Assembly: GCA_029210625.1 (NCBI GenBank)
Contig: JARGFU010000014.1
Coordinates: 50,956-114,955 of the forward strand
Origin: Deltaproteobacteria bacterium
GTDB taxonomy: Bacteria; Myxococcota; Myxococcia; SLRQ01
Direction: 5' to 3'
DNA length: 64,000 nucleotides
Shown: positions 1-24,152 of the stretch, piece after piece
How positions within the stretch are numbered: the stretch's first letter is position 1
Layout: every line of letters begins with the position of its first letter
The notes under the pieces: model-generated
The model's input: only the letters and a program-made list of their open reading frames with translations
Database searches by the model: none
Told to the model about the DNA's origin: nothing
Translations under genes and position numbers: made by a program

Positions 1-3000
1 GGCATCGAGATCAACCTCTGGCAGACCAACGCCAAGGGGGCCTGGATCGACGTCGGCACCGTGACCTCTGGCGCCGCCGGCGCCTACACCTTCAACGGCC
101 TCTCCAACGGCGTCTACAAGGTGTCCGCCCGGGTGCCCAGCACCATCGGTGACACCGACACCCGCGCCCGGCGGATGGACAAGTGGTACGACGTGGCCGC
201 GCCGACCAACAACGGCTTCACGCTGTCGACGGCGGACGAGATCACCCTCACGCCGGCCTCTCCGAGCCGCTCCAGCGTCGTCATCCCGATGGCCAAGGGC
301 TGGGGCTTCGAGAGCGACATCGCCTTCGGCACCACCACCCTGGCCAACAAGTGGCTGCGGGCGGAGCTGCGCGGCGACTTCGAGCAGCACAACGAGACGG
401 TCTCGCGGAACAACGTGGGGGCGTTCGACACCGGCTGGCGCGGTGACTTCCACTTCCGCGGCCTCCAGCCGACCACGGCGAGCTTCGCCGCCGAGCACCG
501 GGTCATCACCTACGATCCGGCAGGCATCTACGAGCCGACCCTGGTCGTGACCCCGACCCTCGGCGGCTCCGCGAACTCCATCCTCGCCATCCCCCAGGTG
601 TCGGTGGCGCAGTTCTCCGCCGTCCCCGACCCGAACGAGCCCAACCAGGACCTCACCCTCGGCCAGTACACCGCGGTGAACGAGGCGACCATCCGGGCCG
701 GCAACGCCTGGACCAGCACCGGCGCCCTGATCATCCCGGGCGACGTCGACTGGTACTGCTGGTCGGCCCTGCCGGGCGAGCGCTACGTGATCACGACCTC
801 GACGGCGCAGTGGCTCGACCCGACCTCCGGCGCGTGCTGCACCGATCAGCTGGATGGCGAGCTGCGCTACAGCCCCTGGCTCGACCCGATGATCCGGCTC
901 TTCCGCAACGGCACCACGGTCGTGACCGAGGACGACGACTCCGCGGCGGCCGGCCCCCTCGACGCCATGATCGATACCGGTGAGATCGGCAGCAGCGCCG
1001 ACTACTGCATCATCGTCTCCACCTACGGCGACAGCACCTTCTCGGGCACGGGCCAGGGCACCTACGGGCGCTACGAGCTCGAGGTCGTGATGGGCAACCG
1101 CCGCCCCACGAGCAGCATCACCGACTCGATCGGCAACACCGTGAACGACGGCGACGGCCGCGCGGTCAACGAGGGTGGCACCTTCACCCTCAACATCCAG
1201 ACCACCGATCCCGACGGTGACACCCCGACCGTCGACGTGACCATCGTCGATGGCTCCGGCACCGACATGGGTGGCAGCTACAACCCCGCCAACGGCGCCT
1301 GGGTCTGGGTCGCCGGCCAGGGCGACGCCGGCTCCTACACGATCACCATCTCGGTGTGTGACGCCGAGGTCTGCACGACCACCGTCGTGAACCTCACCGT
1401 CAACGCGGTGAACATCATCCCCAGCACCCCGGTGCAGGTCGATCCGGCCGACGGCGCGATGGTCGCCACCGCGACCCCGACCCTGACCGTGGACAACGCG
1501 ATCGATCCCGACCCGGACACGATCACCTACGACTTCCAGCTCTACTACTACACCAATCCGGGCCCGACCCCGACGGTGACCCCCGATCAGGAGATCTCCG
1601 GCGTCACCGAGGGCGGCGGCGGGCAGACCAGCTGGGTCCCCGCGGGCATCCCCGAGAACACCCTCGTCTTCTGGCGGGTCCGGGCCTGGGACGGCTACGA
1701 CGCCAACAGCTACTCGCCCTGGTCGGGCTACTTCGACTTCTTCGTGAACGTCGTCAACGACCCGCCGGTCGCGCCGGTGCTCACCAAGCCCGCCGAGGGC
1801 GAGATCGTCGTCACCCGGTCCCCGACCATCGAGGTGAACAACACCACCGATCCCGAGGGTGATGCCATCGACATCTACTTCGAGGTCGCCACCGACGACA
1901 CCTTCGCGACCATCGTCCAGACCTCGCCGGCCGTGGCCCAGTCCGCCGTGGGCACCTTCACCGCCTGGGTGGACCCGGCCGTGCTCCTCGACTGGGGCAC
2001 CTCCTACGCCGCGCGGGCCTACGCGATGGACTCCAACGGTGCCCAGAGCGCCTACAGCAACACCAACCACTTCCGGTTGACCGACAACCAGCCTCCCTCG
2101 GCCGTCAGCCTCGAGTCGCCCTTCTCGGCGGCCGCCTGCGCCGACCTGGTGGTCGCGGTGACCCCGACCAGCATCACGGTGAGCAACTCGGTCGATCCCG
2201 AGGCCGAGGCCGTCACCCTCGATCTCGAGATCTACGACTTCGCCGCCACCCCGGGCGTCGATACCCCCGTGATCTCCGTGGTCGACTACCCGCAGGACGC
2301 CGCGGGCTCCGGCACGGTCATCCCGATCGACAGCACCCAGCTCGCCGAGGACTCCCACTATCGCGTCCGGGCGCGGGCCTCCGACGGCCTCGCGGACACC
2401 GCCTGGGCCGAGTGCGACATGTGGATCAACACCTCGAACAGCGCGCCGAGCGCCATCTCGATCCTGAGCCCGAGCTCCGGGACCTCCTTCCCGAGCGACA
2501 CCCAGTCGGTCACCGTCACCGTGCAGAACGCCAGCGACGCCGAGGGCGGGATGCCGGGCAGCAGCCTCTCCATCGTGCTCTGCGCCAGCGCCGACTCCGC
2601 CTTCGGTGACTGCGACAACTCCCCGACGAACTGGCAGGCCGAGCCCTCGATCGCCGATCCGGCCCAGACCACCGACATCTTGGTGACCCAGCTGGCCGAC
2701 GGCACCCTCCTCGGTCCGGACATGACCGTCTACGTCCAGGCCTGCGCCCTCGACGATCAGGACGAGTGCGGCCCCACCGACTCGACCGACTTCATCATCG
2801 AGGCGGGCATCGTCGACCTCTGCGCCAACGTGCAGTGCACCGCGCCGCAGACCTGTGACCCGGCGACCGGCAACTGCGTCAGCGGCGGCACCGACGGCGG
2901 CACCACCGACGGCGGCGGCACCGCCGACGGCGGCGGCACCGCCGACGGCGGCGGCGGCGGCGGTGAGGGCACCGGCTGCTGCGGTGGCGACACCGCTCAC

Positions 3001-3075
3001 GGCGGCCGCTCCGGCCTCGCCCTGGCGGCCATCTTCGGCCTGCTGGCCCTCTGGACCACGCGGCGCCGTAGCTAG
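1..3075 (+). CDS. Secreted multidomain surface protein with a C-terminal MYXO-CTERM tag; 5' end lies outside the window
   Basis: Frame 1 is open from nt 1 (GIEINLWQTNAKGAWIDVGT...) into the listed ORF 61..3075. It has a GDVDWYCW...YELEV module resembling a pre-peptidase C-terminal domain. It has four ~120-aa repeats, each with PT(L/I)xVxNxxDP(D/E). The tail is Gly/Thr/Asp-rich and ends in a sorting tag. Confidence 0.85.
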   Translation, partial: GIEINLWQTNAKGAWIDVGTVTSGAAGAYTFNGLSNGVYKVSARVPSTIGDTDTRARRMDKWYDVAAPTNNGFTLSTADEITLTPASPSRSSVVIPMAKGWGFESDIAFGTTTLANKWLRAELRGDFEQHNETVSRNNVGAFDTGWRGDFHFRGLQPTTASFAAEHRVITYDPAGIYEPTLVVTPTLGGSANSILAIPQVSVAQFSAVPDPNEPNQDLTLGQYTAVNEATIRAGNAWTSTGALIIPGDVDWYCWSALPGERYVITTSTAQWLDPTSGACCTDQLDGELRYSPWLDPMIRLFRNGTTVVTEDDDSAAAGPLDAMIDTGEIGSSADYCIIVSTYGDSTFSGTGQGTYGRYELEVVMGNRRPTSSITDSIGNTVNDGDGRAVNEGGTFTLNIQTTDPDGDTPTVDVTIVDGSGTDMGGSYNPANGAWVWVAGQGDAGSYTITISVCDAEVCTTTVVNLTVNAVNIIPSTPVQVDPADGAMVATATPTLTVDNAIDPDPDTITYDFQLYYYTNPGPTPTVTPDQEISGVTEGGGGQTSWVPAGIPENTLVFWRVRAWDGYDANSYSPWSGYFDFFVNVVNDPPVAPVLTKPAEGEIVVTRSPTIEVNNTTDPEGDAIDIYFEVATDDTFATIVQTSPAVAQSAVGTFTAWVDPAVLLDWGTSYAARAYAMDSNGAQSAYSNTNHFRLTDNQPPSAVSLESPFSAAACADLVVAVTPTSITVSNSVDPEAEAVTLDLEIYDFAATPGVDTPVISVVDYPQDAAGSGTVIPIDSTQLAEDSHYRVRARASDGLADTAWAECDMWINTSNSAPSAISILSPSSGTSFPSDTQSVTVTVQNASDAEGGMPGSSLSIVLCASADSAFGDCDNSPTNWQAEPSIADPAQTTDILVTQLADGTLLGPDMTVYVQACALDDQDECGPTDSTDFIIEAGIVDLCANVQCTAPQTCDPATGNCVSGGTDGGTTDGGGTADGGGTADGGGGGGEGTGCCGGDTAHGGRSGLALAAIFGLLALWTTRRRS
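2968..3072 (+). other. MYXO-CTERM-type C-terminal sorting signal
   Basis: GTGCCGGDTAHGGRSGLALAAIFGLLALWTTRRRS: a Gly/Cys motif, a hydrophobic helix and an Arg cluster at the extreme C-terminus. This matches my recollection of the MYXO-CTERM (TIGR03901) architecture. Confidence 0.7.
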
Positions 3076-3100: not shown

Positions 3101-3142
3101 GCGCCGTGCTCACCGCGAGGTGGGCACGGCGTTCGTGTTTTT
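3101..3142 (+). terminator. Rho-independent terminator after the MYXO-CTERM gene
   Basis: A 13-bp stem (3102-3114 pairs with 3119-3131, one U.G pair) is closed by a GCGA (GNRA) tetraloop and followed by TTCGTGTTTTT. It starts 26 nt after the TAG at 3073-3075. Confidence 0.6.
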
Positions 3143-3180: not shown

Positions 3181-4965
3181 GTGTCCCGGGCGCTCATCAA
3201 GGTCGGCTACGGCTGCAACGACCACTGCACCTTCTGCCACAGCCTCGAGGATCGCGGCCGGAACGACGACGGACGGCGGGTCGCAGCGAAGATCGACCGG
3301 GCCGCGGACCTGGGCCACTCCATGGCGGTCCTCTCCGGGGGTGAGCCCACCATCCGCCCGGAGCTGATGGCCTGGGCCCGCCACACCCGGAGGCGCGGCC
3401 TGGGCTTCGGGCTGGTCACCAACGGCCGGATGCTCGCCTACGGCGAGAAGGTCGAGGCCCTCCTGGCCGAGGGCCTGGGCTACGTCTACCTCTCCCTCCA
3501 CGGGGGGAGCGCCGCGATCCACGACGCCTGCGTCCGGGCCGAGGCCTTCGAGCAGAGCTACGGGGCCGCCCGGAACCTCGCCGGCCGGGGCCTGGACTTC
3601 ACCGTCAACTGCGTCGTCTGCAAGACCAACCTCGAGCACCTCGACGCCCTGGTCGACCTGCTCGCCCCCCTCGAGGGCGTCCGCCTCACCTTCTCCATGA
3701 CCGAGGCCAAGGGCGGCGCCGATCAGCTCTTCGACTCGGTGGTCCCCCGGGTGAGCGAGGTGGCCGCTGCGGTGGCCGCGGTCATCGCCAGGGGCCGGCA
3801 GGTCGCGCCAGGCCTGCCCCTCCTCCACGGGGGGATCCCCTTCTGTCTCCTCCCGGGGCTCGAGGATCGGCACAGCGACCTGCGCAGCCACGGCTTCGCC
3901 TCGATGTCCGAGGTCTGGGAGGACGACTTCTTCCCGGTGGACAACCGCAACACCGTCCAGCCGGCGCCCTGCCAGGGCTGCCGGCACCGGGGCGCCTGCC
4001 CGGGCCTCTACACCGCCTACCACCAGCGCCACGGAGACGGGGAGCTGCGGCCCGAGGAGGGGCCTCGCTCCAACGCCTTCCACTACGTGCCCCAGCGCGC
4101 CCTCGCCTGGCCTGAGGGGGCCCCCTGCCCGGTGCTGGAGGACGGCCCCTCCCCCTACGACCGGGGCCGGCACCTCCTGCTGCTGCGGGGGGAGTCGCTC
4201 ATCGCCCACCACACCCGCACCCGGGACTTCGCGGACCTCGAGCTCGAGGCGATCAAGGACGCCCTGGGGCAGGTCTACCTCGATCGCTCGACGAAGGACG
4301 CCCCCGACGACTTCGCGGCGGACCTCCAGGCCCTGGAGGAGCTGCCCGTCTGCGCCACCTGCCCGGTCACCGCGCGCTGCACCCACGCCTTCCGCGCCAT
4401 CGACGAGCCGGTCTTCGAGCGGGACGACGCGCGCCTGCGGGAGCGCCTGGGGTCACTGGAGGGCGAGATCCTCGACATCGGCTGCGGCGACGCCCGCTAC
4501 GGCGAGGTCTTCGCGAGCGGGGCCGCGGCCGGGCGCCTGCGCTACTGGGGGATCGATCCGGACGCCGCCCGGCTGGAGGAGCTCGCCCGCCGCTGGCCCT
4601 GGGCCACCCTCGAGGCGACCTCGGCCGAGGCCCTGGAGCTCGCCGAGGCCTCCCTCGATCACGTCCTGGTCCTGCGCGCCTTCAACCACCTGCGGGAACC
4701 CCGGGAGGTGCTCGCCCGCGCCGCCCGGGCCCTCAAGCCCGAGGGCTCCCTGCTGCTGGTCGACAACGTCGCCTTCGGGTTGGTACGCACCCACGAGCAG
4801 GCCGAGCGCGGCGAGCGCGGCGAGGCCGTCTTCGAGCACTATCGCAACGCGGACGATCGAGAGGCCCTCGCCCTCGCCGAGGGGCTCCCCCTCCAGCTCG
4901 TCCACCAGGAGTCCATCTCGCCCGGAACCAGCAACCAGTGGGTGCTGCACTTCCGGCGCACCTGA
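3181..4965 (+). CDS. Radical SAM enzyme fused to a C-terminal class I SAM-dependent methyltransferase domain (rSAM paralog A)
   Basis: GYGCNDHCTFCHS (CX3CX2C); SGGEPT; VTNGRML; C-terminal PCQGCRHRGACPGLYTAYHQRHG; then ILDIGCGDARYG (methyltransferase motif I) and LKPEGSLLLVDN. The track start at 3106 (GTG) lies inside the terminator stem. The next in-frame start is GTG 3181, with GGAGGG 15 nt upstream, so the start is uncertain. Confidence 0.8.
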   Translation: MSRALIKVGYGCNDHCTFCHSLEDRGRNDDGRRVAAKIDRAADLGHSMAVLSGGEPTIRPELMAWARHTRRRGLGFGLVTNGRMLAYGEKVEALLAEGLGYVYLSLHGGSAAIHDACVRAEAFEQSYGAARNLAGRGLDFTVNCVVCKTNLEHLDALVDLLAPLEGVRLTFSMTEAKGGADQLFDSVVPRVSEVAAAVAAVIARGRQVAPGLPLLHGGIPFCLLPGLEDRHSDLRSHGFASMSEVWEDDFFPVDNRNTVQPAPCQGCRHRGACPGLYTAYHQRHGDGELRPEEGPRSNAFHYVPQRALAWPEGAPCPVLEDGPSPYDRGRHLLLLRGESLIAHHTRTRDFADLELEAIKDALGQVYLDRSTKDAPDDFAADLQALEELPVCATCPVTARCTHAFRAIDEPVFERDDARLRERLGSLEGEILDIGCGDARYGEVFASGAAAGRLRYWGIDPDAARLEELARRWPWATLEATSAEALELAEASLDHVLVLRAFNHLREPREVLARAARALKPEGSLLLVDNVAFGLVRTHEQAERGERGEAVFEHYRNADDREALALAEGLPLQLVHQESISPGTSNQWVLHFRRT

Positions 4966-5006
4966 GAGGCGCCGGAGCGCGAGACGAGGAGAGGAAGAGG
5001 GACACG

Positions 5007-6668
5007 ATGCAGGAAAGTGACGCCATCCTCCCGGGAGGGGGGAGCGAGGCCGACAAGATCGCCGAGAAGGAGTCCGCCGCCCACGAGAAGCGCCAGTGGG
5101 TCCGGCTGACCAGCTACTGCAACAACCGCTGCACCTTCTGCCTCGACTCGGCTGCGCACAACGGGACCTTCGTCTCCCGCCGGGAGGTGAGAAGGCAGAT
5201 CATGGACGGCCGCTCTCAGGGGGCCACCCGCCTGATCCTCTCCGGCGGCGAGCCGACCATCCACCCGAACTTCGTCGAGTTCGTGAAGCTCGGGCGGCAG
5301 CTCGGCTACACCAAGGTCCAGACCGTCACCAACGGGCGGCTCTTCTCCTATCCCAAGTTCCTCGCGGCCTGCCTGGACGCCGGCCTCTCCGAGATCACCT
5401 TCTCGGTCCACGGGCACACCGCCAAGGTCCACGACGCCCTCGTCGGGGTGCAGGGCGCCTACGAGGAGGAGCTCGAGGGTCTGGTGGCCGCCCTATCCGA
5501 CGGCCGCCCGATCGTGAACGTGGACGTCTGCCTCAACCGGGGCAACATCAAGGGGCTCCCCACCCTCCTCGACGAGATGATGGAGAAGGGCGTGCGGGAG
5601 TTCGACCTCCTGCACATCATCCCCTTCGGCCGGGCCTTCGATGAGGGCAAGACCGGCCTCTTCTACGACATCGACGAGGCCATGCCCTCCATCCAGTACG
5701 CCCTGGAGCTCTCCAAGCGCCCGGACGTCCACATCTGGTTCAACCGCTTCCCGCCGCCCTATCTCGAGGGCCACGAGGAGCTGATCCAGGATCCCTACAA
5801 GCTCGGCGACGAGGTGCGGGGTCGCCGGGAGGAGTACGACCGCTGGATCGACCAGGGTATCCCGATCTCCTGCCGGGCGCCGGAGCGCTGCTCCCGCTGC
5901 TACCTCGTGCAGCTCTGCGGCAGCCTGGAGGCCCACCTCGCCTCGCGGCAGGCCGACGACTTCGAGGTGCTGCAGGTGCAGGTGGCCGCCGACGGCGCCT
6001 TCTCTCCCCCGGGGGAGAGTAAGGCCGCCGAGCTCTGGATCCGCGCCGCGGATCTCGGCAGCGCCCGGAAGGCCGCCCGGGGCCTGCCGGGGGAGCGCCT
6101 GACCCTGGAGCTCGAGAGCTTCGCGGGACTGGCCGAGGCCCTGGCACCCGACGGAACGCTGGATGGGAGGCCCCTGCGGGCGGCCTACGTGGCCTCCGCC
6201 GGGGAGCTGGACGCGCTCCTGGCCCTGCCGGGCGAGTTCGAGGTGGGCGCGATCCTGGGCGCCGAGCTGGCTGCCCACCTGATGGAGCGCTGGCCGGAGC
6301 CCCCCGCCCGCCTGGTGCTGGCCGCCCGGGGCCGGGAGCGCCTGACGACCGAGAAGGAGCAGGGCGCCGACCTGAAGGCCTTCTTCGAGGCCTACGCGCC
6401 CGACACGAAGGTGCCGGTTGAGGGGGTGCCCGCCTGCCTGGTCGGCGACCCCGAGCGGATCCGGCCCCGGCGCCGGACCCTGACCACCGCCAGCCTCGAC
6501 GGCGCGGGCCGGACCGACATCTTCGCCTTCACCGGCCAGTACATCCTCGACGACTACCTCACCAAGAGCCACCGCTGCTCGGAGTGTCGTCTGAACGACG
6601 AATGCCCCGGTGCGCACATCAACTACGTGCGCGCCCGGGGCTATTCGCAGCTACAGCCCTTGAAGTGA
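5007..6668 (+). CDS. Radical SAM enzyme (rSAM paralog B) with a long C-terminal extension
   Basis: TSYCNNRCTFCLDS; SGGEPTIHP; VTNGRLFSY; an internal CRAPERCSRCYLVQLC; terminal HRCSECRLNDECPGAHINYVRARG. ATG 5007 is preceded by GAGGAGAGGAAGAGGG. The track start at 4938 would overlap the upstream gene. Confidence 0.8.
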   Translation: MQESDAILPGGGSEADKIAEKESAAHEKRQWVRLTSYCNNRCTFCLDSAAHNGTFVSRREVRRQIMDGRSQGATRLILSGGEPTIHPNFVEFVKLGRQLGYTKVQTVTNGRLFSYPKFLAACLDAGLSEITFSVHGHTAKVHDALVGVQGAYEEELEGLVAALSDGRPIVNVDVCLNRGNIKGLPTLLDEMMEKGVREFDLLHIIPFGRAFDEGKTGLFYDIDEAMPSIQYALELSKRPDVHIWFNRFPPPYLEGHEELIQDPYKLGDEVRGRREEYDRWIDQGIPISCRAPERCSRCYLVQLCGSLEAHLASRQADDFEVLQVQVAADGAFSPPGESKAAELWIRAADLGSARKAARGLPGERLTLELESFAGLAEALAPDGTLDGRPLRAAYVASAGELDALLALPGEFEVGAILGAELAAHLMERWPEPPARLVLAARGRERLTTEKEQGADLKAFFEAYAPDTKVPVEGVPACLVGDPERIRPRRRTLTTASLDGAGRTDIFAFTGQYILDDYLTKSHRCSECRLNDECPGAHINYVRARGYSQLQPLK

Positions 6669-6711
6669 GGCGCGAGGGGGCACCCGCGAGGGCCCCCCTC
6701 GGCAACAGGCC

Positions 6712-7572
6712 TCAATCCACGCGGATGTAGTAGTTGACGACGACCGTCTTCGGCCGGGTCTCCGCCTGACCGAAGTCGCCGGTGGCGGCGTTCTGCACCT
6801 TCTGCGGCGAGGAGGTGTTCTGCACGGCCGGATCGACCGTGCCACCCACCGGGCCGGCGTAGGACGCGACCGAGTGCGAGTGGGTGCGGAGCTGATCCGA
6901 CTGGTAGCCGCCGAGCGCGGTGTTCTCCTGGTAGATGTCCACGGCCGAGTTGATCACGTCGGGCCGCGCCGGCGCGCCCTTGTGACCCCGGAGGAAGACA
7001 CCCCGGAGGTCCGGGACGTTGGTGCTGCCGGTGAGGGCCGCGTAGCGGGTGCCCGCCGCGCTCTGGCCGTCGGCCAGCATCCAGCCGCCGCCGTGGACCG
7101 TGTTGAAGTCGGTCTCGTCCAGCACGCTGGCCACGATGTCGCCGATGCCGAGGCCGCCGCTGTTGGTCCGCAGGGAGTAGACGCCCGCGGAGACCTTCTG
7201 GAAGCCCAGGTCCGAGATCGACGTGCCGAGGTCGCCGCCGCGGCCGGCCACCCGGATCCACACCGGCTGAACGGCCGTCGCCAGGCGGGTACGGCAGGTC
7301 GGATCCGTCACCTCGAAGGTGAACTTGCCGGCCACCACGTCCACCGACTGCGAGGTGTTCGACCCGCAGATGTTGGAGGGGTTGGTGTCGGAGGTGACGA
7401 ACTCGACCACGAGGTCGTAGGTGCCGTCGTCGAGCGGAGCTCCGTTGACCCAGATCTCACCCTGGTAGATCAGGGGGATACCGTCGGGCATCTGGGCGGA
7501 GACGGGGCCGGCGGTCAGCGCCGCCAGCAGGGTGGCCGTGAGAAGAAGGCCATGGCGCATGTCGAACTTCAT
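6712..7572 (-). CDS. Secreted phage-tail-collar-domain protein (MdpB-like)
   Basis: Signal peptide MKFDMRHGLLLTATLLAALTAGPVSAQ. C-terminal ...GWMLADGQ...VPDLRGVFLRG...HSHS...ETRPKTVVVNYYIRVD is typical of the tail collar fold. ATG 7572 is preceded by GGAGGG and overlaps the upstream stop (ATGA). Confidence 0.7.
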   Translation of the reverse strand: MKFDMRHGLLLTATLLAALTAGPVSAQMPDGIPLIYQGEIWVNGAPLDDGTYDLVVEFVTSDTNPSNICGSNTSQSVDVVAGKFTFEVTDPTCRTRLATAVQPVWIRVAGRGGDLGTSISDLGFQKVSAGVYSLRTNSGGLGIGDIVASVLDETDFNTVHGGGWMLADGQSAAGTRYAALTGSTNVPDLRGVFLRGHKGAPARPDVINSAVDIYQENTALGGYQSDQLRTHSHSVASYAGPVGGTVDPAVQNTSSPQKVQNAATGDFGQAETRPKTVVVNYYIRVD

Positions 7573-8099
7573 TGGGTGATCCCTCCACAAACCTGAATTC
7601 CACTGCCGGCCACGGGAGCGCAGCCCGCTCCGATCCGGCTTTCCATGATTCGCTTTTCCCTGATGCCCAGGGGCGCAGTCCGCTTCATGCCACCGAGGTG
7701 GCCCATGAGGCGGATGCAGAGACACTCGCCGCCCAGGGGATCGTCACCCCCCGCACGGCAGCGCACCGACTCCGAGTCCGCACAGCCGCAGGTGCCGTGC
7801 AGGGCGGTCATGTCGGTCTGGCCCGGGTCACAGGGAGTCAAGGTCACGCCGCCGTCGGTGCCGTCGGGCACGCAGTTCCCCGTGGCGGGCTCGCATGTCT
7901 CGCCCGGGTTGCAGGTGACGTTCTCGCAGGGGTCGGTGCCGCCGTCGATCACCCCCGCGACGCAGATCCCGGCCTCACAGTGCTGATCGGCCGGGCAGGC
8001 GTCGTTGGCCCCGCAGGGGCGGCCGGAGGGCTTCTCCGAGATCATCAGAGAGCACGCTCCGAGGAAGAGCGGAAGCAAGAGCAGACTCGCACGGCGCAT
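7569..8099 (-). CDS. Cys-rich lipoprotein
   Basis: MRRASLLLLPLFLGAC lipobox; 18 Cys; module CENVTCNPGETCEPATGNCVPDGTDGG. The start shares 1 nt with the upstream stop. Confidence 0.65.
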   Translation of the reverse strand: MRRASLLLLPLFLGACSLMISEKPSGRPCGANDACPADQHCEAGICVAGVIDGGTDPCENVTCNPGETCEPATGNCVPDGTDGGVTLTPCDPGQTDMTALHGTCGCADSESVRCRAGGDDPLGGECLCIRLMGHLGGMKRTAPLGIREKRIMESRIGAGCAPVAGSGIQVCGGITQ

Positions 8100-9544
8100 C
8101 AGAAGGTCCCTCGCAAGACGACCACGCCCCCGCCCGGGATCGGCGCGGCGGACATGGAGAAGGCGTCTCTCTCGGCTGGCTCGCCCCCTCCCGAGGAGCC
8201 GCCACCCATGTCTCTAAGGAAGAGCCAGGTCGCGACCCCGACCCCCGCGGCGCCAACCACGTAGAAGATGTCGGCGGCCAGGGCCTGGCTCCGGGCCTGC
8301 TTCATGGCAGCCTCGTAGCCCGCGGTGTCGATCTGGGGGGTGTCGTGGGCCAGCTTCTCCTTGGACTTGGCCGAGAGCCCGAAGGCGATCCCGCCGACGA
8401 TGCCGGCGGCGCCCGCCACGCCCGGATAGACCCCGACCGGGATCTTGGAGATGAAGCCCTTGTCGTCCTTCATCGTCTTGATCGGCTCACCCTTCGGCCC
8501 GCGCGGCCGGTTGGTGGCGTGCAGCTTGTCGAGGAGGGCCTCGATGCTGCGCCCGGCGCCCGGGGCGGTCGGCTTGAGGGCCGAGTCCTCGTGGGCGAAG
8601 TAGTGGCCGTCGGCGCCGAAGCGCGCGAGGGAGACCTTGGGCGGACCGGAGTCGGAGGGCTGCAGCACGATGATGGTCGCCTGCTCGGCGCCCGCCCACT
8701 GGGCCAGGGCCCCACCGGCGTCGGGGAACCCGCCGGCCCGGAAGGCGCCCCGGATGCGCTCGAGCTTACCGAGGAGCTCCTTGCCCTTCGGGGCCTCCTT
8801 GAGCTTGTAGCGGGCGATCTGCCCCGCCGCCGCCAGCTGCTTCTCCTGGGCGAAGGCGTAGCCGGTGGCGAACACCGAGACGATGTGGTTGCCCGGAGAG
8901 AGCTTCGGCACCTCGAGGGGCGTGACGCCCGCGTAGCGGCCATCGACGAAGACCCGCGCCGGCACCGGCGCCACCTGGACCTCGAGGGCCGTGGGCGGGG
9001 CCATCTCGGCGCTGCGGCGGGCGTCCTCGACGTGGCTCTCGATGTCCGGGGTCAGGCGGCTGGAGTCGAAGGCGTAGTCCGGCCGGAGCGTGTGCAGATC
9101 GATCAGCTGGTTGCGCGCCTCCGGCACCCTCCCCGCGTAGAAGAGCGCGAGCGCCCGCGCGGCGTAGGCGTCGAGGAGACCGTCGAGGTAGACGGTCAGA
9201 TCCGCCTGCTCGAAGAGCTCGATCGCGGCTGCGAGGCGTCCGAGGGAGGCCTCGTAGTCCATCGCATCGTAGGCGTCGAGGCCGGCCTTGTACTCGGCCA
9301 GGGCCTTCTCGCCCTTCTCCTTCCGCAGGGCCACCTGATCACCGCGGGCGAACGCAGCGGCGTCGATGTAGACCAGGCGCTGGCTCCCCTCGGCCCAGGC
9401 GGCCACGTAGGCCTCGAGTGCGGCGGCTTCCCCTTGCAGGGAGCGATCGAGCGCAACGATGCCGAAGGTCTCTTTCGGCTGAGCCTCCGCTCTCGCCGAC
9501 AGTCCAACCACCCCCAGCACCAAGATCGTCGTAAGTGCCCTCAT
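8099..9544 (-). CDS. PEGA-domain protein with signal peptide and C-terminal TM segments
   Basis: MRALTTILVLGVVGLSARAEA signal; PEGA-like VFVDGRYAGVTPLEVPKLSPGNHIVSVFATGY; TPR-like N-terminal half. Start moved to ATG 9544 (the track start is 9580). Confidence 0.65.
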   Translation of the reverse strand: MRALTTILVLGVVGLSARAEAQPKETFGIVALDRSLQGEAAALEAYVAAWAEGSQRLVYIDAAAFARGDQVALRKEKGEKALAEYKAGLDAYDAMDYEASLGRLAAAIELFEQADLTVYLDGLLDAYAARALALFYAGRVPEARNQLIDLHTLRPDYAFDSSRLTPDIESHVEDARRSAEMAPPTALEVQVAPVPARVFVDGRYAGVTPLEVPKLSPGNHIVSVFATGYAFAQEKQLAAAGQIARYKLKEAPKGKELLGKLERIRGAFRAGGFPDAGGALAQWAGAEQATIIVLQPSDSGPPKVSLARFGADGHYFAHEDSALKPTAPGAGRSIEALLDKLHATNRPRGPKGEPIKTMKDDKGFISKIPVGVYPGVAGAAGIVGGIAFGLSAKSKEKLAHDTPQIDTAGYEAAMKQARSQALAADIFYVVGAAGVGVATWLFLRDMGGGSSGGGEPAERDAFSMSAAPIPGGGVVVLRGTF

Positions 9545-9642
9545 GACCGGGCCACAATAGCAGAAAGCCGGGCGGCGCAAACCTTCGAACTCCGGGCGCT
9601 TTCACGCGCCGGGTGGATACCGGCCGCCCTGACCCCCCGAGA

Positions 9643-11685
9643 TCAGAACTTGATGATCTTCGGAGGGTTGGCGCCCTCCTTGATCGTCACCGCCTCGAAG
9701 CGCTCCAGCCCGCTCGGGGGGTTCACGACCTTGATGTTGTGCTTTCCGACCGAGAGCTCGATGTTGCGGGCGGGGCTGCGGCCATGGTCCGTGCCGTCCA
9801 CGTAGACCCGGCACCAGGGGATGCAGTTCACGCTGAGCAGGCCGGTGGCGCCGGAGGCGGCTGGCTTGGTGACGGTCTCCTTGGGCGGCCTCGGCCGCTT
9901 GGGGCGCTTCGGCCGCTTCGGGGGATCGTTCTCGGCCACCACCACCGGATCGGGCTCGGGCGGCGGCGGGGGGTCCTCGACCACCGGATCGGGCTCGGGG
10001 GGCGGCGGCGGGGGATCCTCGACCACCGGATCGGGCTCGGGCGGCGGGGGCGGCGGCTCGGCGACCACCGGATCGGGGTCGGGGGTGGGATCGGGGGCCG
10101 CGATCGGATCGGTGGGGGTGGGATCCGGTGCCTTCACGGGCTCGGGATCGGCCGGCTTCACCGGGTCCGAGGGTCGCACCAGGGGCTGGGGATCACGGGA
10201 ATCGTCCGGCGTCGGGTCCCCGGAGAGCGCGAAGTAGCCGCCGACCCCGGCGAGGATCGCCACCGCTGCCCCGATGCCGATGATCTTCCCCATGGGGGAG
10301 GAGCTCGCCACCGGCTCGTCGTCGTCGTCGCCGAAGAACGCATCCTCGACGATCGGCTCCACGTCCTCGTCGAGGGCCGAGGGACGGATCTCGGAGATGT
10401 CCTTGATCCGGGTCGCCCCCTCGTCGGCGACCGGCGCCGGAGGGACGATCTCCGAGATGTCCTTGATGCGGGTCGCCCCCTCGTCGGCGGCCGCGGGCAC
10501 CGCGGGGATCTCGGAGACCGAGGAGGGCGCGATCCGGGTGGACATGTCCTCCATCCCGGGATCGGCCGCGGGCGGAGGCGCCGCCTGCGGGGCGGGCGGC
10601 GGCGGGGCGGGCGCGGGGACCTCGGCCGCCGGGCCGGCCGCGGCGACCGCCGCAGGGGCGGGCGCGGGCGCGGGCGCAGGCGCCGAGGGCACGGGCGCCC
10701 CGGGGTTGCTGGCGAACTCGGCGGCCGCCTTCTTCGGGAAGGCGAGCTTCTCCTTGATGTGTTCCTCACCGAAGAGGTGGTTGAGGAACTGCTTGAGCTG
10801 GACGTGCGAGGGCGCGTAGGTCCGCTGCGCCAGGAAGTCGTCGATCGCCTCCCGCATCGCCTGGGCCGAGGGGAAGCGGGCGTCGACGTCGCGCTCGAGC
10901 GCGCGCAGGATGATCGCCTCGAGCTCCTCGGGGAGGCTCGGCTGCAGCTGCCGCGGAGGCTTGATCTCCTCCTCGGTGACGGCGAGGAGCATCGCGAGCT
11001 GGTTGTCGCGCTGGAAGACCCGCACGCCGGTGACCATCTCGTAGAGCAGCGCCCCGAGGGCGAAGACGTCGGAGCGGGCGTCCACCAGCTTTCCCCGGGC
11101 CTGCTCCGGGGACATGTACATGAACTTGCCCTTCACCATGCCCGCCTCGGTCTTCACGATCTTGCCGGCGGCCTTGGCGATGCCGAAATCGAGCACCTTC
11201 ACCGAGCCCTGGTAGGTGACCAGGATGTTCGAGGGAGAGATGTCCCGGTGGACGATCCCCAGGGGCTCTCCGGTCTCACCGGTGAGGGTGTGGGCGTAGT
11301 GCAGGCCCTCGCAGGAGAGCGACGCGATCACCGCAGCGATCTGGGGCGGCATGACGCGGCGCTTCTTCCGCAGCAGGCGGAGGATGGAGGAGAGGTCCTC
11401 TCCCCCCAGGTACTCCATCGCCAGGAAGTAGGTCCCCTGCTCCTCACCGAAGTCGAAGACCTGCACGACGTTCGGATGAGAGAGCTGCGCCGCGAGGCGC
11501 GCCTCGTCCAGGAACATGTGGATGAACTCGTCGTCCTGGGCCAGGTGACCTAGCACCCGCTTCACCACGACGGTCTTCCCGAAGCCAGCGGGTCCTTCCT
11601 GCCTGGCAAGGAAGATCTCCGCCATTCCCCCCTGGGCGAGGGGGGTCAGCAGCTTGTATCGCCCTACGGTGTCCGGACCTTCCAT
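9643..11685 (-). CDS. Eukaryotic-like Ser/Thr protein kinase with Pro-rich linker, TM helix and C-terminal PEGA-like domain
   Basis: GGMAEIFLA...VVVKRV (Gly loop and Lys), HRDISPSNILV, DFGIAKA, SPEQ. TM segment IIGIGAAVAILAGVGGYFAL. C-terminal VYVDGTDHGRSPARNIELSVGKHNIKV. Confidence 0.9.
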   Translation of the reverse strand: MEGPDTVGRYKLLTPLAQGGMAEIFLARQEGPAGFGKTVVVKRVLGHLAQDDEFIHMFLDEARLAAQLSHPNVVQVFDFGEEQGTYFLAMEYLGGEDLSSILRLLRKKRRVMPPQIAAVIASLSCEGLHYAHTLTGETGEPLGIVHRDISPSNILVTYQGSVKVLDFGIAKAAGKIVKTEAGMVKGKFMYMSPEQARGKLVDARSDVFALGALLYEMVTGVRVFQRDNQLAMLLAVTEEEIKPPRQLQPSLPEELEAIILRALERDVDARFPSAQAMREAIDDFLAQRTYAPSHVQLKQFLNHLFGEEHIKEKLAFPKKAAAEFASNPGAPVPSAPAPAPAPAPAAVAAAGPAAEVPAPAPPPPAPQAAPPPAADPGMEDMSTRIAPSSVSEIPAVPAAADEGATRIKDISEIVPPAPVADEGATRIKDISEIRPSALDEDVEPIVEDAFFGDDDDEPVASSSPMGKIIGIGAAVAILAGVGGYFALSGDPTPDDSRDPQPLVRPSDPVKPADPEPVKAPDPTPTDPIAAPDPTPDPDPVVAEPPPPPPEPDPVVEDPPPPPPEPDPVVEDPPPPPEPDPVVVAENDPPKRPKRPKRPRPPKETVTKPAASGATGLLSVNCIPWCRVYVDGTDHGRSPARNIELSVGKHNIKVVNPPSGLERFEAVTIKEGANPPKIIKF
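9943..10085. repeat. In-frame tandem repeat (39-42 bp, about 3.3 copies) inside the kinase gene
   Basis: CACCGGATCGGGCTCGGG...TCCTCGAC units on the + strand encode EPDPVVEDPPPPPP repeats in the kinase linker. Confidence 0.85.
10385..10500. repeat. Direct duplication (about 52 bp, 60-bp period) inside the kinase gene
   Basis: Two copies encode DEGATRIKDISEI. Confidence 0.8.
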
Positions 11686-11741
11686 TGCACCCGCCAGTCT
11701 ACAGATCGCACGGAAGGCGGGTCAAAGATCCCGGGTCAACT

Positions 11742-12761
11742 TCAGTGCAGGTCGCTCGCCGGAGGCACCGGGACGAACTCGCCCCAGCCATGGCGGGCAG
11801 CGTAGGATTCGTACACGCCCTGGCAGGTGGGCTCGTAGCGGCAGCCCCCGCAGGGCTCACCCTTGACCCGCCCCTGGGCGTCGATCCGGCCGGCCTCCAG
11901 GATCCGGAAGCGGCCGTCGGCCGAGGTCTTCCCGACGCTCCGGGCCAGGGGCGAGGGGGAGCCGTCCTCGACCTCGAAGGAGGTGTACTCGGCCAGCTTC
12001 CGGACGTGGTGCGGCTCGAACTCGACGGTGATGCAGGGGGGCAGATTGGCCAGCTCGAGCTCCGTGCCCGGCGCGAGCCCCTCGGCCAGGATCGCCCGGA
12101 TCTGCCCCTGGAGCTGCTCGTAGGAGGGAAAGAGCTCGTCCATCGCCAGCAGCACCCGCCCCCGCGCGGCCAGGCCGTCGAGGCGGACGGCGGAGACCCC
12201 CATCCCGGCCAGGAGGCCATAGAGCTCGCCCAGGCGATCGACGTTGGGGCGGACCACCACGGTGCTGGTGCAGATCCGGGTCTCGTCGTCGGCGCCGGCC
12301 AGCAGCGCCCGGAGCCCCGCCACGGTCTGGTCGAAGGCCCCCTCCCGGCCGACCAGGCGATCGTGCAGCTCGGCGTCGGGGCCATGGAGCCCCACCAGGA
12401 AGGCGTTGAAGCCGGCGTCCAGGAGGTCCCGGGCGTAGCCCGGCGACCCCAGCCGCCGGCCGTTGGTCATCAGCCCGATCCGCCCGTAGCCGAGCTCGCG
12501 GGCCTGCTGCCCCAGGGCGGGCAGCTCCTCGAGGAGCGTGGGCTCGCCGGAGGTGAAGTAGACCTCGGGCGTCCCCTGATGGGCCTCGAGGAGCTCCCGG
12601 GTGCGGGACTCGGTCATGGCGGCGTTGACCACGAAGCGGAGCTCCCGATCGTCCTCCACGCAGAAGACGCAGTCGTTGTTGCACAGGGGGCCCACGTGGA
12701 GGTGGATCCGCTCCGGGCGGGAGTTCTGGGGGGGGAGATCCTTCATGGCCTCGGAGCCCAT
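11742..12761 (-). CDS. Radical SAM enzyme (rSAM paralog C)
   Basis: GPLCNNDCVFCVED; TSGEPTLL; MTNGRRLG; LHGPDAELHDRLVGREGAFDQT; C-terminal EPCGGCRYEPTCQGVYESYAARHG. Only 56 nt upstream of the kinase gene on the same strand. Confidence 0.8.
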   Translation of the reverse strand: MGSEAMKDLPPQNSRPERIHLHVGPLCNNDCVFCVEDDRELRFVVNAAMTESRTRELLEAHQGTPEVYFTSGEPTLLEELPALGQQARELGYGRIGLMTNGRRLGSPGYARDLLDAGFNAFLVGLHGPDAELHDRLVGREGAFDQTVAGLRALLAGADDETRICTSTVVVRPNVDRLGELYGLLAGMGVSAVRLDGLAARGRVLLAMDELFPSYEQLQGQIRAILAEGLAPGTELELANLPPCITVEFEPHHVRKLAEYTSFEVEDGSPSPLARSVGKTSADGRFRILEAGRIDAQGRVKGEPCGGCRYEPTCQGVYESYAARHGWGEFVPVPPASDLH

Positions 12762-12913
12762 TGTAGACCGCCCGATCCGGGGAGCCAGCCGGAGGGGGCC
12801 GCCGGCCTCCTGTCCGAGAAGAGGAGGATCTGCCTTGAAAGTCGCGGGACCGGCGGGTTAGGATTGGGGCCCAGGGTGAGCTCCCTTCACCCGACCAAGT
12901 GGGAGGCAGCAAC

Positions 12914-13501
12914 ATGTCCAGGTACGACCGTCGATCCGTCCTGAAGCTGATTGGCCTTGGTGCCGTCGCCGCCGGTACCGGCGTCGCCGCGAAGTCCGCA
13001 GTGGCCAGCACCGTGACCCAATCTTCGAACCTGGATCTCGGGCTCGCGTCGGTTCCGACCGCGGCGCCGACCGCGGTCGCCGCCCAGGCGCCCGAGGCCG
13101 TGGCCGTGGACGAGAGCTCGCCCTGGTGGCTGATCGCCCCCTACGGCGTGAACAGCAAGGTGGCCCTCTCCGAGATCCGTCACCTCCAGCACTCCCAGAG
13201 CGGCGCGGTCTTCGCGTTCCTCGTGGCCAGTAACGGCAAGCCCTACCGGATCGACATCTGCCGTCACGACGCCTCGATCGACGCCCCGGCGCCGATCGCT
13301 CGGACCGCCGGCTACGACCTCTTCATCGCCAACGAGGGCGAGGGTCAGGCCCCGACCGATCGGGAGCAGGGCCTCGCCGTCCTCGCGCTCGCCGACGCCA
13401 TCCGCTCGGCCGAGCTCGGCGGGAAGCGCCTCTCGCTCCTGACGATGCGCGAGCGCTGGACCCGCTTCAGCAAGGTCGAGCTGGGGCCCTCCCTGGCCTA
13501 G
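12914..13501 (+). CDS. Tat-signal small secreted protein of unknown function
   Basis: MSRYDRRSVLKLIGLGAVAAGTGVAAKSAVA has a twin-arginine motif (RRSVLK). GGGAGG lies 8 nt upstream of ATG 12914. I recognise no family for the mature part. Confidence 0.6.
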   Translation: MSRYDRRSVLKLIGLGAVAAGTGVAAKSAVASTVTQSSNLDLGLASVPTAAPTAVAAQAPEAVAVDESSPWWLIAPYGVNSKVALSEIRHLQHSQSGAVFAFLVASNGKPYRIDICRHDASIDAPAPIARTAGYDLFIANEGEGQAPTDREQGLAVLALADAIRSAELGGKRLSLLTMRERWTRFSKVELGPSLA

Positions 13502-13543
13502 GCCCGAAGCGCGGCCATCGGATCCTTGACCGGAGGTGGGGCG

Positions 13544-14443
13544 ATGCCGAGGTGGTTCGCCCTCCTCCTCGGGTATCGGTGCAACAACCGCTGCCTGTTC
13601 TGTGGGCAGGCGGAGGTGCGAGAAGCCGACGCCCAGCCGGTAGCGGAGCCTGCGCTCCGCGCCGCCCTCGAGGCTGCCCGTGCTTCGGGATCGCCCGGCG
13701 TCTGGCTGGTCGGCGGTGAGCCGACCCTGAGGGAGGATCTCCCCCAGCTGATCGGTCTCGCCCGGGAGGTGGGCTTCTCGCGGGTCGGCCTGCAGACCAA
13801 CGGAAGACGCCTGGCCTACGGCGGCTACCGGCAGGATCTCCTGGCGGCCGGCCTGACCGATCTCGAGGTCTCCCTCCAGGGCAGCTCCGCCGACTGCCAT
13901 GATCACCTCACCCGGGTGCCCGGCGCCTTCGAGCAGACCCTCCGGGGCCTGCGGGGCCTGAGCGGGAGCGGGCTGCGGCTCGGCCTGGCCACGCTCCTCG
14001 ACCGCTCCAACTTCCGCCACCTGGGAGAGCTGCTCCGGCTCGCCCTCCGGCTCGAGGCTCAGCACCTGCGCTGGTCCTTCCCGCAGGACCGGGGTGAGGT
14101 CCGCCAGGATCCCCGCCGCGTCGGGCCCCGCCTCACCCTCCTGGCTCCCCGGCTGCGAGCAGTTGCCGACCAGCTCGCCGCCGCGGGCGGCGGCGCGCCC
14201 CGCCCGAGCCTCGCCGGGGTGCCGGACTGTCACCACCCCGAGGGCTTCCGGAGAGGTCCGGCCGACCTCTCGGAGGGCCTGCGCACCTTCGGGGAGGCCT
14301 GCGCGGCCTGCCCCTCCCGGGAGAGCTGTCCGGGCCTCGCCGCAGGCTACGCCCGGCACCACGGCACCGCGGAGCTGACTCCCCCGGCGACGGCCCGGGA
14401 GATCCTGCCGGACGACGAGGCCCCGGGCCTCTACCTCGCCTGA
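13544..14443 (+). CDS. Radical SAM enzyme (rSAM paralog D)
   Basis: GYRCNNRCLFCGQ; VGGEPTLRED; QTNGRRLAY; LQGSSADCHDHLTRVPGAFEQT; C-terminal EACAACPSRESCPGLAAGYARHHG. GGAGGT lies 8 nt upstream of ATG 13544 (the track TTG start is 13526). Confidence 0.8.
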   Translation: MPRWFALLLGYRCNNRCLFCGQAEVREADAQPVAEPALRAALEAARASGSPGVWLVGGEPTLREDLPQLIGLAREVGFSRVGLQTNGRRLAYGGYRQDLLAAGLTDLEVSLQGSSADCHDHLTRVPGAFEQTLRGLRGLSGSGLRLGLATLLDRSNFRHLGELLRLALRLEAQHLRWSFPQDRGEVRQDPRRVGPRLTLLAPRLRAVADQLAAAGGGAPRPSLAGVPDCHHPEGFRRGPADLSEGLRTFGEACAACPSRESCPGLAAGYARHHGTAELTPPATAREILPDDEAPGLYLA

Positions 14444-14493
14444 TCCCGGCGACGGAACGAGGACGGCCGCTCCCTACGGGACGGCCGTGTTCG

Positions 14494-14511
14494 CCGGCGC
14501 GATGGCGCCGG
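14494..14511. terminator. GC hairpin between convergent genes (weak terminator candidate)
   Basis: CCGGCGC-gatg-GCGCCGG: 7-bp stem, 4-nt loop, no clear U tract. A second hairpin, ACGGCCG...CGGCCGT, lies just upstream. Confidence 0.2.
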
Positions 14512-14556
14512 ACGCTTCACGCCCCTCCAGCCGGATGGCCGGGGGCGAGAAGGGGG

Positions 14557-14919
14557 CTACCAGGAGCCGTGCGAGCCGTGGCTGCCGTGCGAGCCGTGGC
14601 TGCCGTGCGAGCCATGGCTGCCGTGCGAGCCGTGGCTGCCGTGCGAACCGTGGCTGCCGTGCGAGCCGTGGCTGCCGTGCGAGCCGTGGCTGCCGTGCGA
14701 GCCGTGCGAGCCGTGGCTGCCGTGCGAGCCGTGGCTGCCGTGCGAACCGTGGCTGCCGTGCGAACCGTGTGAGCCGTGGGAGACGTGCTGGGCGAGCAGG
14801 CGGCCGTCGCCCTCGTCGCTCTCGATGCCAGCCGAGCGCCCGGCCTGATCGACAGCCTCACTCTCGACCTTGGAGAGCATTCCCCGTGCACGCTTCTTGA
14901 AAGTCGGAATCTTGGCCAT
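14557..14919 (-). CDS. Leader + HVS-(HGS)24-W repeat peptide; candidate His-Xaa-Ser-type ribosomal precursor (HxsA-like)
   Basis: MAKIPTFKKRARGMLSKVESEAVDQAGRSAGIESDEGDGRLLAQ, then HVS, 24 x HGS, and a terminal W. GAGGGGA lies 5-6 nt upstream of ATG 14919. All variation between repeat units is synonymous only in this frame. Same strand as, and directly downstream of, the two HxsD-like genes. Confidence 0.7.
   Translation of the reverse strand: MAKIPTFKKRARGMLSKVESEAVDQAGRSAGIESDEGDGRLLAQHVSHGSHGSHGSHGSHGSHGSHGSHGSHGSHGSHGSHGSHGSHGSHGSHGSHGSHGSHGSHGSHGSHGSHGSHGSW
14563..14787 (-). repeat. 25 tandem 9-bp units with an 18-bp higher-order period
   Basis: The + strand alternates CGAGCCGTG / GCTGCCGTG, with variants CGAGCCATG (x1), CGAACCGTG (x3), TGAGCCGTG, GGAGCCGTG and GGAGACGTG. 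On the minus strand these read CAC/CAT-GGC/GGT-TCG/AGC/TCA/TCC. Confidence 0.95.
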
Positions 14920-15048: not shown

Positions 15049-15279
15049 TCAGTCAGGGTGCCCTGCCCTCTTCTCCTCGACGGTGAGGGCCAGGACGTAG
15101 TTGGCGAACTCGGCAGTGATCGCCTCGACGTCGTCTTCCTCGTCGATGGCGTCGATCTCGAGCCGGTAATAGGGCTCGACCTCGGAGAGGACGATCCGGG
15201 CCGCCTCGCCGAAGAGCTTGATCGCCTCGTCGGTCGCCGCGCGGGAGTAGAGGCCCTGGTGCAGCTGGAGGACGCTCAC
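15049..15279 (-). CDS. Small HxsD-like protein (paralog 2, 76 aa)
   Basis: LYSRAATDEAIKLFGEAARIVL...ITAEFANYVLALTVEEK is collinear with the upstream paralog (LY-x46/47-FAN-x-(L/V)L). The GTG start overlaps the upstream TGA (GTGA). Confidence 0.5.
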   Translation of the reverse strand: MSVLQLHQGLYSRAATDEAIKLFGEAARIVLSEVEPYYRLEIDAIDEEDDVEAITAEFANYVLALTVEEKRAGHPD

Positions 15280-24143: not shown

Positions 24144-24152
24144 GAGCCCGCC

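Follow-up and report, generated by a model that had tools for sequence, protein, structure and literature searches.

The HXS system of Escherichia coli, made up of HxsD, HxsB, HxsC and HxsA, has recently been characterized as an anti-phage system that blocks DNA entry (Nat Commun 2026, PMC13128918). In that study, a +8 Da modification was detected on one HxS unit and credited by the authors to HxsB and HxsC, although this could not be tested in mutants; HxsC was found to bind HxsD, and mutation of the CxxC motif in the second cluster of HxsC impaired the processing of HxsA and abolished defense. As many as 99.7% of the canonical systems belong to Pseudomonadota, and their gene content is nearly always limited to the same four genes. 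The chemistry of the HXS pathway remains unsolved, its reconstitution in vitro failed, and a function was assigned only in 2026 (PMC13128918). A literature search on HxsA4, HxsC4 or HGS repeats returned nothing beyond this paper and passing mentions.

Here we analyze a stretch of 64,000 nucleotides, referred to below as the window, from a myxobacterial genome (Deltaproteobacteria bacterium, Myxococcota; assembly GCA_029210625.1, contig JARGFU010000014.1, positions 50,956 to 114,955 of the forward strand). An earlier note on this DNA, made from the sequence alone, drew attention to four paralogous radical S-adenosylmethionine (SAM) enzymes, called A to D here, surrounding a gene for a peptide with HGS repeats. 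Our analysis makes it likely that A to D are four non-redundant HxsC-type maturases of one multi-enzyme “type 4” Hxs system that act on a common substrate, the peptide HxsA4. The type 4 system is a widespread myxobacterial variant of HXS that has been partly catalogued by NCBIfam (HxsA4, HxsC4 and HxsD_rel). As far as the searchable literature shows, its multi-HxsC architecture, the orthogroups of A, B and D, its partner protein with a twin-arginine (Tat) signal and its HxsB-less form have not been described.

Four HxsC-type radical SAM enzymes

Open reading frames (ORFs) of the window, which has a G+C content of about 71%, were picked by third-position GC. All four radical SAM genes proposed in the earlier note are intact, and each product matches the Pfam family Radical_SAM (PF04055; E 3.5e-21 to 1.5e-17). 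Paralog A (3181-4965, plus strand, 594 aa) combines an HxsC-type radical SAM domain and two four-Cys modules with a class I SAM methyltransferase at its C-terminus, and paralog B (5007-6668, plus strand, 553 aa) has such a radical SAM domain with an insertion or extension of about 220 aa and likewise two four-Cys modules. Paralog C (11742-12761, 339 aa), which lies on the minus strand, belongs to the clade named HxsC4 by NCBI, and paralog D (13544-14443, plus strand, 299 aa) is the nearest of the four to canonical HxsC. Alternative GTG starts are present at 3106 for A, giving a 619-aa form, and at 4938 for B. The third-position GC of the four genes (0.88-0.94) is of the coding type, their products are 26% (B), 30% (C) and 38% (D) identical to A, and no fifth member of this subfamily is encoded within the window.

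Searched as regular expressions, most of the motifs listed for the paralogs in the earlier note, namely CN[ND]xC[TVL]FC, [SG]GEPT, TNGR[RML] and CxxC-x5-C-[PQ]G-x3/4-Y-x3-[HR]G, are found in all four proteins, the last of them at the extreme C-terminus of B (aa 524-545). Two details need correction: the spacing between (H/Q)G and HD is five residues rather than four, and the motif GAF(E/D)Q is exact in C and D, with AEAFEQ in its place in A and GAYEE in B. The CNxxCxxC signature, which had been taken as typical of peptide-modifying enzymes, is the universal radical SAM motif CX3CX2C and is not diagnostic. Together with the Pfam match, CX3CX2C and the GGE motif in all four proteins and the agreement of an AlphaFold2 model of C with radical SAM structures place the paralogs in the superfamily.

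Within the superfamily, the top NCBIfam match of all four is HxsC4 (NF038332), with a full-length match of 251 bits for C and scores of 115, 114 and 98 bits for D, A and B, respectively. The HxsC model (TIGR03977) scores 52 (A), 82 (B), 75 (C) and 80 (D) bits, which makes it the second match for B and C, the third for D and the eleventh for A; in phmmer comparisons with canonical HxsC, paralog D is the best of the four at 77 bits. The hxsB-hxsC pair of a Novosphingobium plasmid served as the canonical reference. This HxsC carries the motifs of A to D (CNNYCLMC, GGEPT, SNGRR, HD..GAFDE and CATCEVRNDC...Y...RG), whereas the HxsB encoded with it is a different, SPASM-like enzyme. These motifs therefore indicate that all four paralogs are of the HxsC type and that none is HxsB-like. 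Homologs of C that NCBI names HxsC4 share 37-39% identity with it, and C clusters with them. A public name exists only for this clade; the orthogroups of A, B and D have no family model or name, and their members are labeled “radical SAM protein” in public records.

The repeat peptide and the HxsD-type proteins

The precursor HxsA4 (14557-14919, minus strand, 120 aa) is recognized by NCBIfam NF038313 with 129 bits against a cut-off of 55. It consists of a hydrophilic 45-aa leader, MAKIPTFKKRARGMLSKVESEAVDQAGRSAGIESDEGDGRLLAQ, followed by HVS, (HGS)24 and a terminal W, so that the 25 repeats counted in the earlier note correspond to one HVS and 24 HGS units, encoded at 14563-14787. The leader holds the family motif (I/L)PxFKK-x5-LS-x2-E and ends in the junction AQH(V)S. 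No signal peptide was seen in HxsA4, the maximum Kyte-Doolittle mean over 17 aa of the leader being -0.31, and the protein contains no further domain, thus no peptidoglycan-binding domain.

At the DNA level, the repeat has a period of 18 nt according to Tandem Repeats Finder, as opposed to the 3-aa period of the peptide; of the 23 steps along its Ser codons, 20 are a change from TCG to AGC or the reverse. The same alternation of TCG and AGC is seen in the repeat of one other locus (L044; loci are numbered here as in our survey below). It is no general feature of such genes, since the switch frequency over all loci is 0.416, with 0.414 expected. An ORF on the opposite strand (14487-14900, plus) with ASRGCR repeats and weak HxsA4-like and collagen-like matches was rejected as a repeat artifact rather than a gene.

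Two HxsD-type proteins are encoded next to HxsA4 on the same strand. The 76-aa HxsD-like protein (15049-15279, minus strand) passes NCBIfam NF038315 (HxsD_rel) with 59.3 bits against a cut-off of 41, and HxsD itself (15276-15779, minus strand, 167 aa) is borderline for TIGR03976, scoring 50.0 bits with the cut-off at 50. The GTG start of the HxsD-like gene overlaps the stop codon of the HxsD gene (GTGA), and the minus-strand operon begins with HxsD and continues with the HxsD-like protein and HxsA4. Orthologs of HxsD, at 100-140 bits, adjoin HGS peptides in more than 20 loci. The gene of paralog D is convergent with that of HxsA4, as are its orthologs in loci L038 and L126.

Linkage of the enzymes to repeat peptides

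One genome per species was scanned for six consecutive His-Gly pairs each followed by a Ser-type codon, which yielded 120 blocks of 8 kb. A short protein ending in a repeat array is encoded in 85 of these blocks, mainly from Myxococcota but also from Binatia, Elusimicrobia, candidate-phyla bacteria, Omnitrophota and one archaeal bin. The peptides have 5-64 repeats and usually end in W, with the leader motif LPxFKK-x5-LS-x2-E and the junction AQHCS. An HxsB- or HxsC-like gene is present in the block at 51 of the 85 peptide loci, compared with 2 of the 35 other matches (Fisher p = 1.2e-8); the blocks are arbitrary tiles, hence the former count is a lower bound. Orthologs of the window enzymes score 250-615 (A), 270-570 (B), 150-246 (C) and 120-186 (D) bits in the survey loci, and orthologs of the HxsD-like protein recur there as well.

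The earlier note suggested determining which of the paralogs travel with the HGS peptide, and orthologs of all four turn out to adjoin HGS peptides or HxsD in unrelated genomes. In L048 and L064 (Nannocystaceae / Myxococcales) the order is A, HxsD, HxsB, HxsA4, C; in L044, Tat200 (the Tat-signal protein described below) and paralog D stand at some remove from HxsD, the HxsD-like protein (HxsDrel), HxsA4, A and B; and in L126 the order is Tat200, HxsD, HxsDrel, HxsA4, paralog D (reverse strand), HxsB, A. A is followed by HxsD in L053 and L004, and B adjoins the peptide cluster in L079. The number of enzymes can exceed that of the window, with six radical SAM genes after HxsA4 in L002, including B, C and A in that order, and seven around HxsD and the peptide in L127. 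Three A orthologs that had been picked solely for their long contigs all lie in such clusters, and one of these loci, L125, is fully syntenic with the window. Rather than occurring independently of a repeat peptide or an HxsD-like gene, the paralogs thus travel with the peptide, and together with the HxsC motifs and the HxsA4 and two HxsD-type neighbors this linkage supports the proposal that they are Hxs-type enzymes modifying the HGS peptide.

Several observations weigh against a single system of four maturases. None of the paralogs reaches the cut-off of a curated family (500 bits for NF038332, 267.9 bits for TIGR03977), and HxsB, which is essential in E. coli, is absent from the 64-kb window. 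The peptide gene is 8-11 kb away from A and B, with genes for a tail-collar-like protein, a PEGA protein and a kinase in between, and A and B follow the gene of a large secreted protein; both features recur in L125. The C ortholog of L001 is unlinked, the peptide being on another contig of the same genome, and that of L003 has no peptide within 10 kb. Finally, three points make the analogy with anti-phage defense weak: HxsA4 has neither a signal peptide nor a domain for peptidoglycan binding, synteny of the locus is kept between relatives with A proteins of only 58% identity, and its neighborhood consists of housekeeping genes and is not a defense island. A PADLOC scan of all system proteins returned only generic radical SAM similarity at the level of viperin and a weak mad2 match to the methyltransferase part of A.

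The C clade is consequently not always linked to a peptide, as illustrated by a Polyangiaceae assembly (GCA_046351325.1) in which an NCBI-named HxsC4 (L001) is found on a contig apart from that of the HGS peptide, HxsD and HxsDrel (L072). The neighbors of this HxsC4 are an M48 peptidase and a Castor/TrkA-type protein.

The main rival explanation divides the substrates: paralog D, and perhaps C, would mature HxsA4, while A and B would have a different target, for example the large secreted protein encoded at 61-3075 or a substrate whose gene is located elsewhere. The genes of this large protein, A and B are co-directional and tightly spaced, a run that is kept in L125, and a second Cys module sets A and B apart from C and D, as does the methyltransferase in the case of A. 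In unrelated genomes, however, A or B orthologs directly adjoin the peptide or HxsD (L044, L048, L053, L064, L004, L079 and L002), and no homolog of the large protein is present in those loci. Because A and B adjoin HxsA4 or HxsD in unrelated genomes, we disfavor the division of substrates and regard it as improbable.

Two improbable alternatives: cofactor-type chemistry and local duplication

A second alternative, which we consider very improbable, holds that A to D are enzymes of cofactor or small-molecule metabolism similar to MoaA or PqqE. Several homologs carry Joint Genome Institute names such as “cyclic pyranopterin phosphate synthase”, and the paralogs show weak matches to MoaA, AhbD, NirJ and BlsE. 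Yet the scores for MoaA, PqqE, AhbD and similar cofactor families are 35-81 bits against cut-offs of 231-650, so that none of the paralogs falls into a well-characterized non-peptide family, an outcome that the earlier note had named as fatal to its proposal. For the AlphaFold2 model of C (predicted local distance difference test, pLDDT, 93), Foldseek lists BlsE, GDGT-MAS, DesII, viperin, SuiB and MoaA, but the best match, ahead of these, is the peptide maturase SkfB, and all template modeling (TM) scores are about 0.5. Such scores reflect the generic radical SAM barrel only, and C is without a close structural relative; a sequence search of C against Protein Data Bank chains gave three weak matches (E 5.7e-8 to 2.3e-7). 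The strong linkage to the repeat peptide and HxsD also speaks against non-peptide chemistry.

The four paralogs fall into four separate clades of a neighbor-joining tree of 91 HxsC-like domains, and every one of these clades also holds orthologs of other genomes; four or more additional clades have no member in the window, and canonical HxsC is placed outside, near the root. Quartets made of two window paralogs and an ortholog of each (window X and its ortholog against window Y and its ortholog) were evaluated with 60 bootstrap replicates and three choices of ortholog, and the expected grouping was recovered in 59-60 of 60 replicates for all six pairs. Bit scores between orthologs are 3-8 times those between paralogs. 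The separate clades and the quartet support show that A to D are ancient, separately conserved and non-redundant orthogroups, not local duplicates. The least probable alternative, recent local copies with overlapping function or partial inactivation, as four subfamily members within 11 kb might suggest, is contradicted by the low identity to A (26-38%), the orthologs of each copy in other genomes and the catalytic and Cys motifs, all of which are intact and conserved.

The earlier note left a choice between iterative chemistry on the repeats and several distinct substrates. On this point, because the four enzymes are separate conserved orthogroups, the data favor several distinct steps on one substrate.

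An HxsB-less arrangement

Among the 120 blocks, 40 have an HxsB-like gene (290-336 bits to canonical HxsB) next to the peptide, and 38 of these 40 belong to the 85 peptide loci, or about 45% of the latter. HxsB is also present in L126 and L127, with TIGR03978 scores of 487 and 548 against a cut-off of 370. No ORF of the window matches canonical HxsB at E<1e-3, and a search with a myxobacterial HxsB profile is negative for the window and L125 at E<=10; in L002 and L001 the profile gives trivial matches only, to HxsC-like ORFs (E about 4e-6 to 1e-3). L044 and L036 encode HxsD, HxsDrel and HxsA4, with no HxsB within their blocks. The absence of HxsB from the window, L125, L002, L044 and L036 thus amounts to a recurrent arrangement, which suggests an HxsB-independent sub-type of the system.

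Architecture of the enzymes

The four-Cys modules C...CxxCx5C number two each in A and B and one each in C and D, the second CxxCx5C being at aa 391 in A and at aa 295 in B. In the 619-aa form of A, Pfam assigns aa 32-186 to Radical_SAM and aa 455-550 to Methyltransf_11/12/25. Invariant across 41 orthologs of A are C12/C16/C19, the modules C222/C264/C267/C273 and C316/C391/C394/C400, and methyltransferase motif I (LDxGCG). At least 827 homologs of A are found at E<=1e-20, and the best 120 listed are radical SAM-methyltransferase fusions of about 600 aa. The cysteines of B (C38/42/45, C289/295/298/304 and C477/524/527/533) are kept in all eight orthologs examined. All 41 sequences of the C orthogroup keep C31, C34, C243, C304, C307 and C313, and C27 is nearly invariant among them. 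In the orthogroup of paralog D the triad is kept in 6 of 6 members and the single Cys module in 4 of 6, the other two possibly being ORFs shortened by stop-to-stop extraction. By their Cys patterns, C and D would each carry one auxiliary cluster, and A and B two.

The C-terminal element had been described as partial and SPASM-like. A to D share with SPASM/Twitch maturases such as SkfB, SuiB, PqqE and anSME a barrel followed by a Cys-rich C-terminal region with CxxCx5C. They differ in that none of the four contains CX2CX5CX3C, the fourth Cys of this motif being missing, or matches Pfam PF13186; structurally, the likeness goes no further than the barrel (TM about 0.5), and A and B duplicate the module.

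Comparison with canonical systems and proposed mechanism

Canonical HXS loci of E. coli, Klebsiella and other Pseudomonadota have in common with the window an HxS-repeat precursor with an aromatic C-terminus, an HxsD, and an HxsC-type enzyme with CX3CX2C, GGEPT, NGRR, HD..AF(D/E) and the C-terminal CxxCx5C motif of the second cluster. The differences are considerable. Canonical loci encode one HxsC, whereas the window encodes four HxsC-type enzymes and no HxsB; A to D also lack the N-terminal extension of about 100 aa of canonical HxsC, so that their cluster motif lies at aa 12-38 instead of aa 116 in the Novosphingobium protein and C105 in that of E. coli. The canonical peptide has five HxS units, and that of the window 25 uniform HGS units without a signal peptide or a peptidoglycan-binding domain. 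The HxsD-like protein, the methyltransferase fusion and the Tat-signal protein are additions of the window, and the canonical gene order D-B-C-A is replaced by HxsD, HxsDrel and HxsA4 with the enzymes dispersed. The window locus is chromosomal, stands among housekeeping genes and belongs to Myxococcota, unlike the almost exclusively pseudomonadotal canonical systems. With respect to the NCBIfam families, the window peptide and the HxsD-like protein pass as HxsA4 and HxsD_rel, and C is a full-length but divergent member of NF038332 (“rSAM_rare_HxsC4”), at 251 bits against the cut-off of 500.

Several radical SAM enzymes and methylation acting repeatedly on one ribosomal peptide are known from pathways such as that of the proteusin polytheonamide, with PoyB, PoyC and PoyD. 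We take these to be unrelated to A to D, which presumably have no B12 domains, and the window substrate, in distinction, to be a perfect tripeptide repeat.

Beyond the family assignment, the intact motifs, the orthogroups and the linkage to the peptide and HxsD, which are shown here, we infer for the type 4 system a shared substrate, a division of labor, auxiliary clusters, export and a cellular role, as follows. HxsD and the HxsD-like protein would bind the leader (LPxFKK...LS..E) and present the repeats to the enzymes, a step modeled on the HxsC-HxsD complex of E. coli. Each enzyme may then use the [4Fe-4S] cluster and SAM bound at its CX3CX2C site to take a hydrogen from a different position of the repeat unit, assisted by putative auxiliary clusters in the C...CxxCx5C modules, of which C and D have one each and A and B two, and a methyl group would be contributed by the methyltransferase domain of A. 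The product would be processed and would probably leave the cytoplasm, with Tat200 as a candidate periplasmic partner or carrier. If E. coli HXS is a guide, the system may serve against phages, or it may have some other role in the cell.

A more far-reaching picture unites these elements into a distinct pathway able to run without HxsB, in which four to seven HxsC-type enzymes, one of them a methyltransferase fusion and two with three Fe-S sites, would turn all 25 repeats into a modified polymer. This polymer would be exported via the Tat-signal partner and would serve a conserved role in the cell envelope of Myxococcota, such as the capture of nucleic acids or metals or the blocking of phage entry, rather than belonging to a mobile defense island. 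As a whole, this picture is tentative and rather unlikely to hold in every part.

For the unsolved HXS chemistry, the variant offers a substrate that is short, looks soluble and presents 24-25 identical target units, a set of at least four conserved HxsC-type enzymes among which the reactions are naturally divided, and loci with and without HxsB for comparison. It also defines three large unnamed enzyme orthogroups (A, B and D). With carriers in Myxococcota, Binatia, Elusimicrobia and candidate-phyla bacteria, HxS-repeat systems moreover prove to be common beyond Pseudomonadota.

Neighboring genes and further repeat-peptide loci

Directly upstream of paralog D, the gene of the 195-aa protein that we call Tat200 (12914-13501, plus strand) encodes a twin-arginine signal at the N-terminus, MSRYDRRSVLKLIGLGAVAAG. 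Tat200 has no family match in Pfam, NCBIfam or PADLOC, a word-based search gives only four close homologs, and the AlphaFold2 model has a pLDDT of 39. Relatives adjoin orthologs of paralog D or HxsD in L044 (1714-2310), L087, L038, L126 (5409-6050) and L125 (21046-21627), and others are found in the HGS-peptide blocks L055 (3111-3839), L079, L108 (527-1156) and L111. The family is fast-evolving; a single Cys is conserved in it, and its motifs are G+xF+VDxC+xD and NxGxGxxPTxExxGxA. Tat200 could be a periplasmic partner of the signal-less peptide or a carrier that lets it “hitch-hike” through the Tat route.

The large secreted protein directly upstream of A (61-3075, plus strand) has 1004 aa with Asp/Thr/Gly-rich repeats and is also found upstream of A in the syntenic L125 (6850-9984). 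It ends in ...GCCGGD...(hydrophobic helix)...RRRS, which we take to resemble a MYXO-CTERM sorting signal. The genes between B and C (6712-11685, minus strand) encode the tail-collar-like secreted protein, the PEGA protein and a Ser/Thr kinase that has a Pro-rich linker and resembles PEGA at its C-terminal end; C heads this minus-strand run and is followed by the kinase, PEGA and tail-collar-like genes in turn. The block is present in L125 (13394-18555) and not in the other Hxs loci. These three genes were considered as parts of the system and rejected, their relatives being near HGS peptides only in L125 and with one peptide subfamily.

The rest of the window has housekeeping content, including PBP1A, ZnuA, a pseudouridine synthase, a decarboxylase and others. 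The ZnuA-type periplasmic zinc-binding protein is encoded at 24144-25214 (plus strand), about 9 kb from the gene of the His-rich peptide; this may be a coincidence, but the neighbor is worth recalling if the mature peptide binds metal.

The survey also yielded repeat peptides of other kinds. In L028, L086, L089, L113, L118 and L121, HGS peptides with the junction AEHCS are encoded in 8-kb blocks that contain no radical SAM gene or HxsD; the conserved neighbors of this subfamily are a sigma factor, a Ser/Thr kinase with a PEGA domain and an L,D-transpeptidase, the last of which includes a peptidoglycan-binding domain in L118. In L009, L022, L025 and L099, from candidate-phyla and Elusimicrobia bins, the leader motif is followed by a transmembrane-like segment, and peptides of these groups often end in ...RGGWC or Y. 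The archaeal bin, assigned to Nanoanaerosalina, has an HxS-repeat locus with HxsC-like genes (L095).

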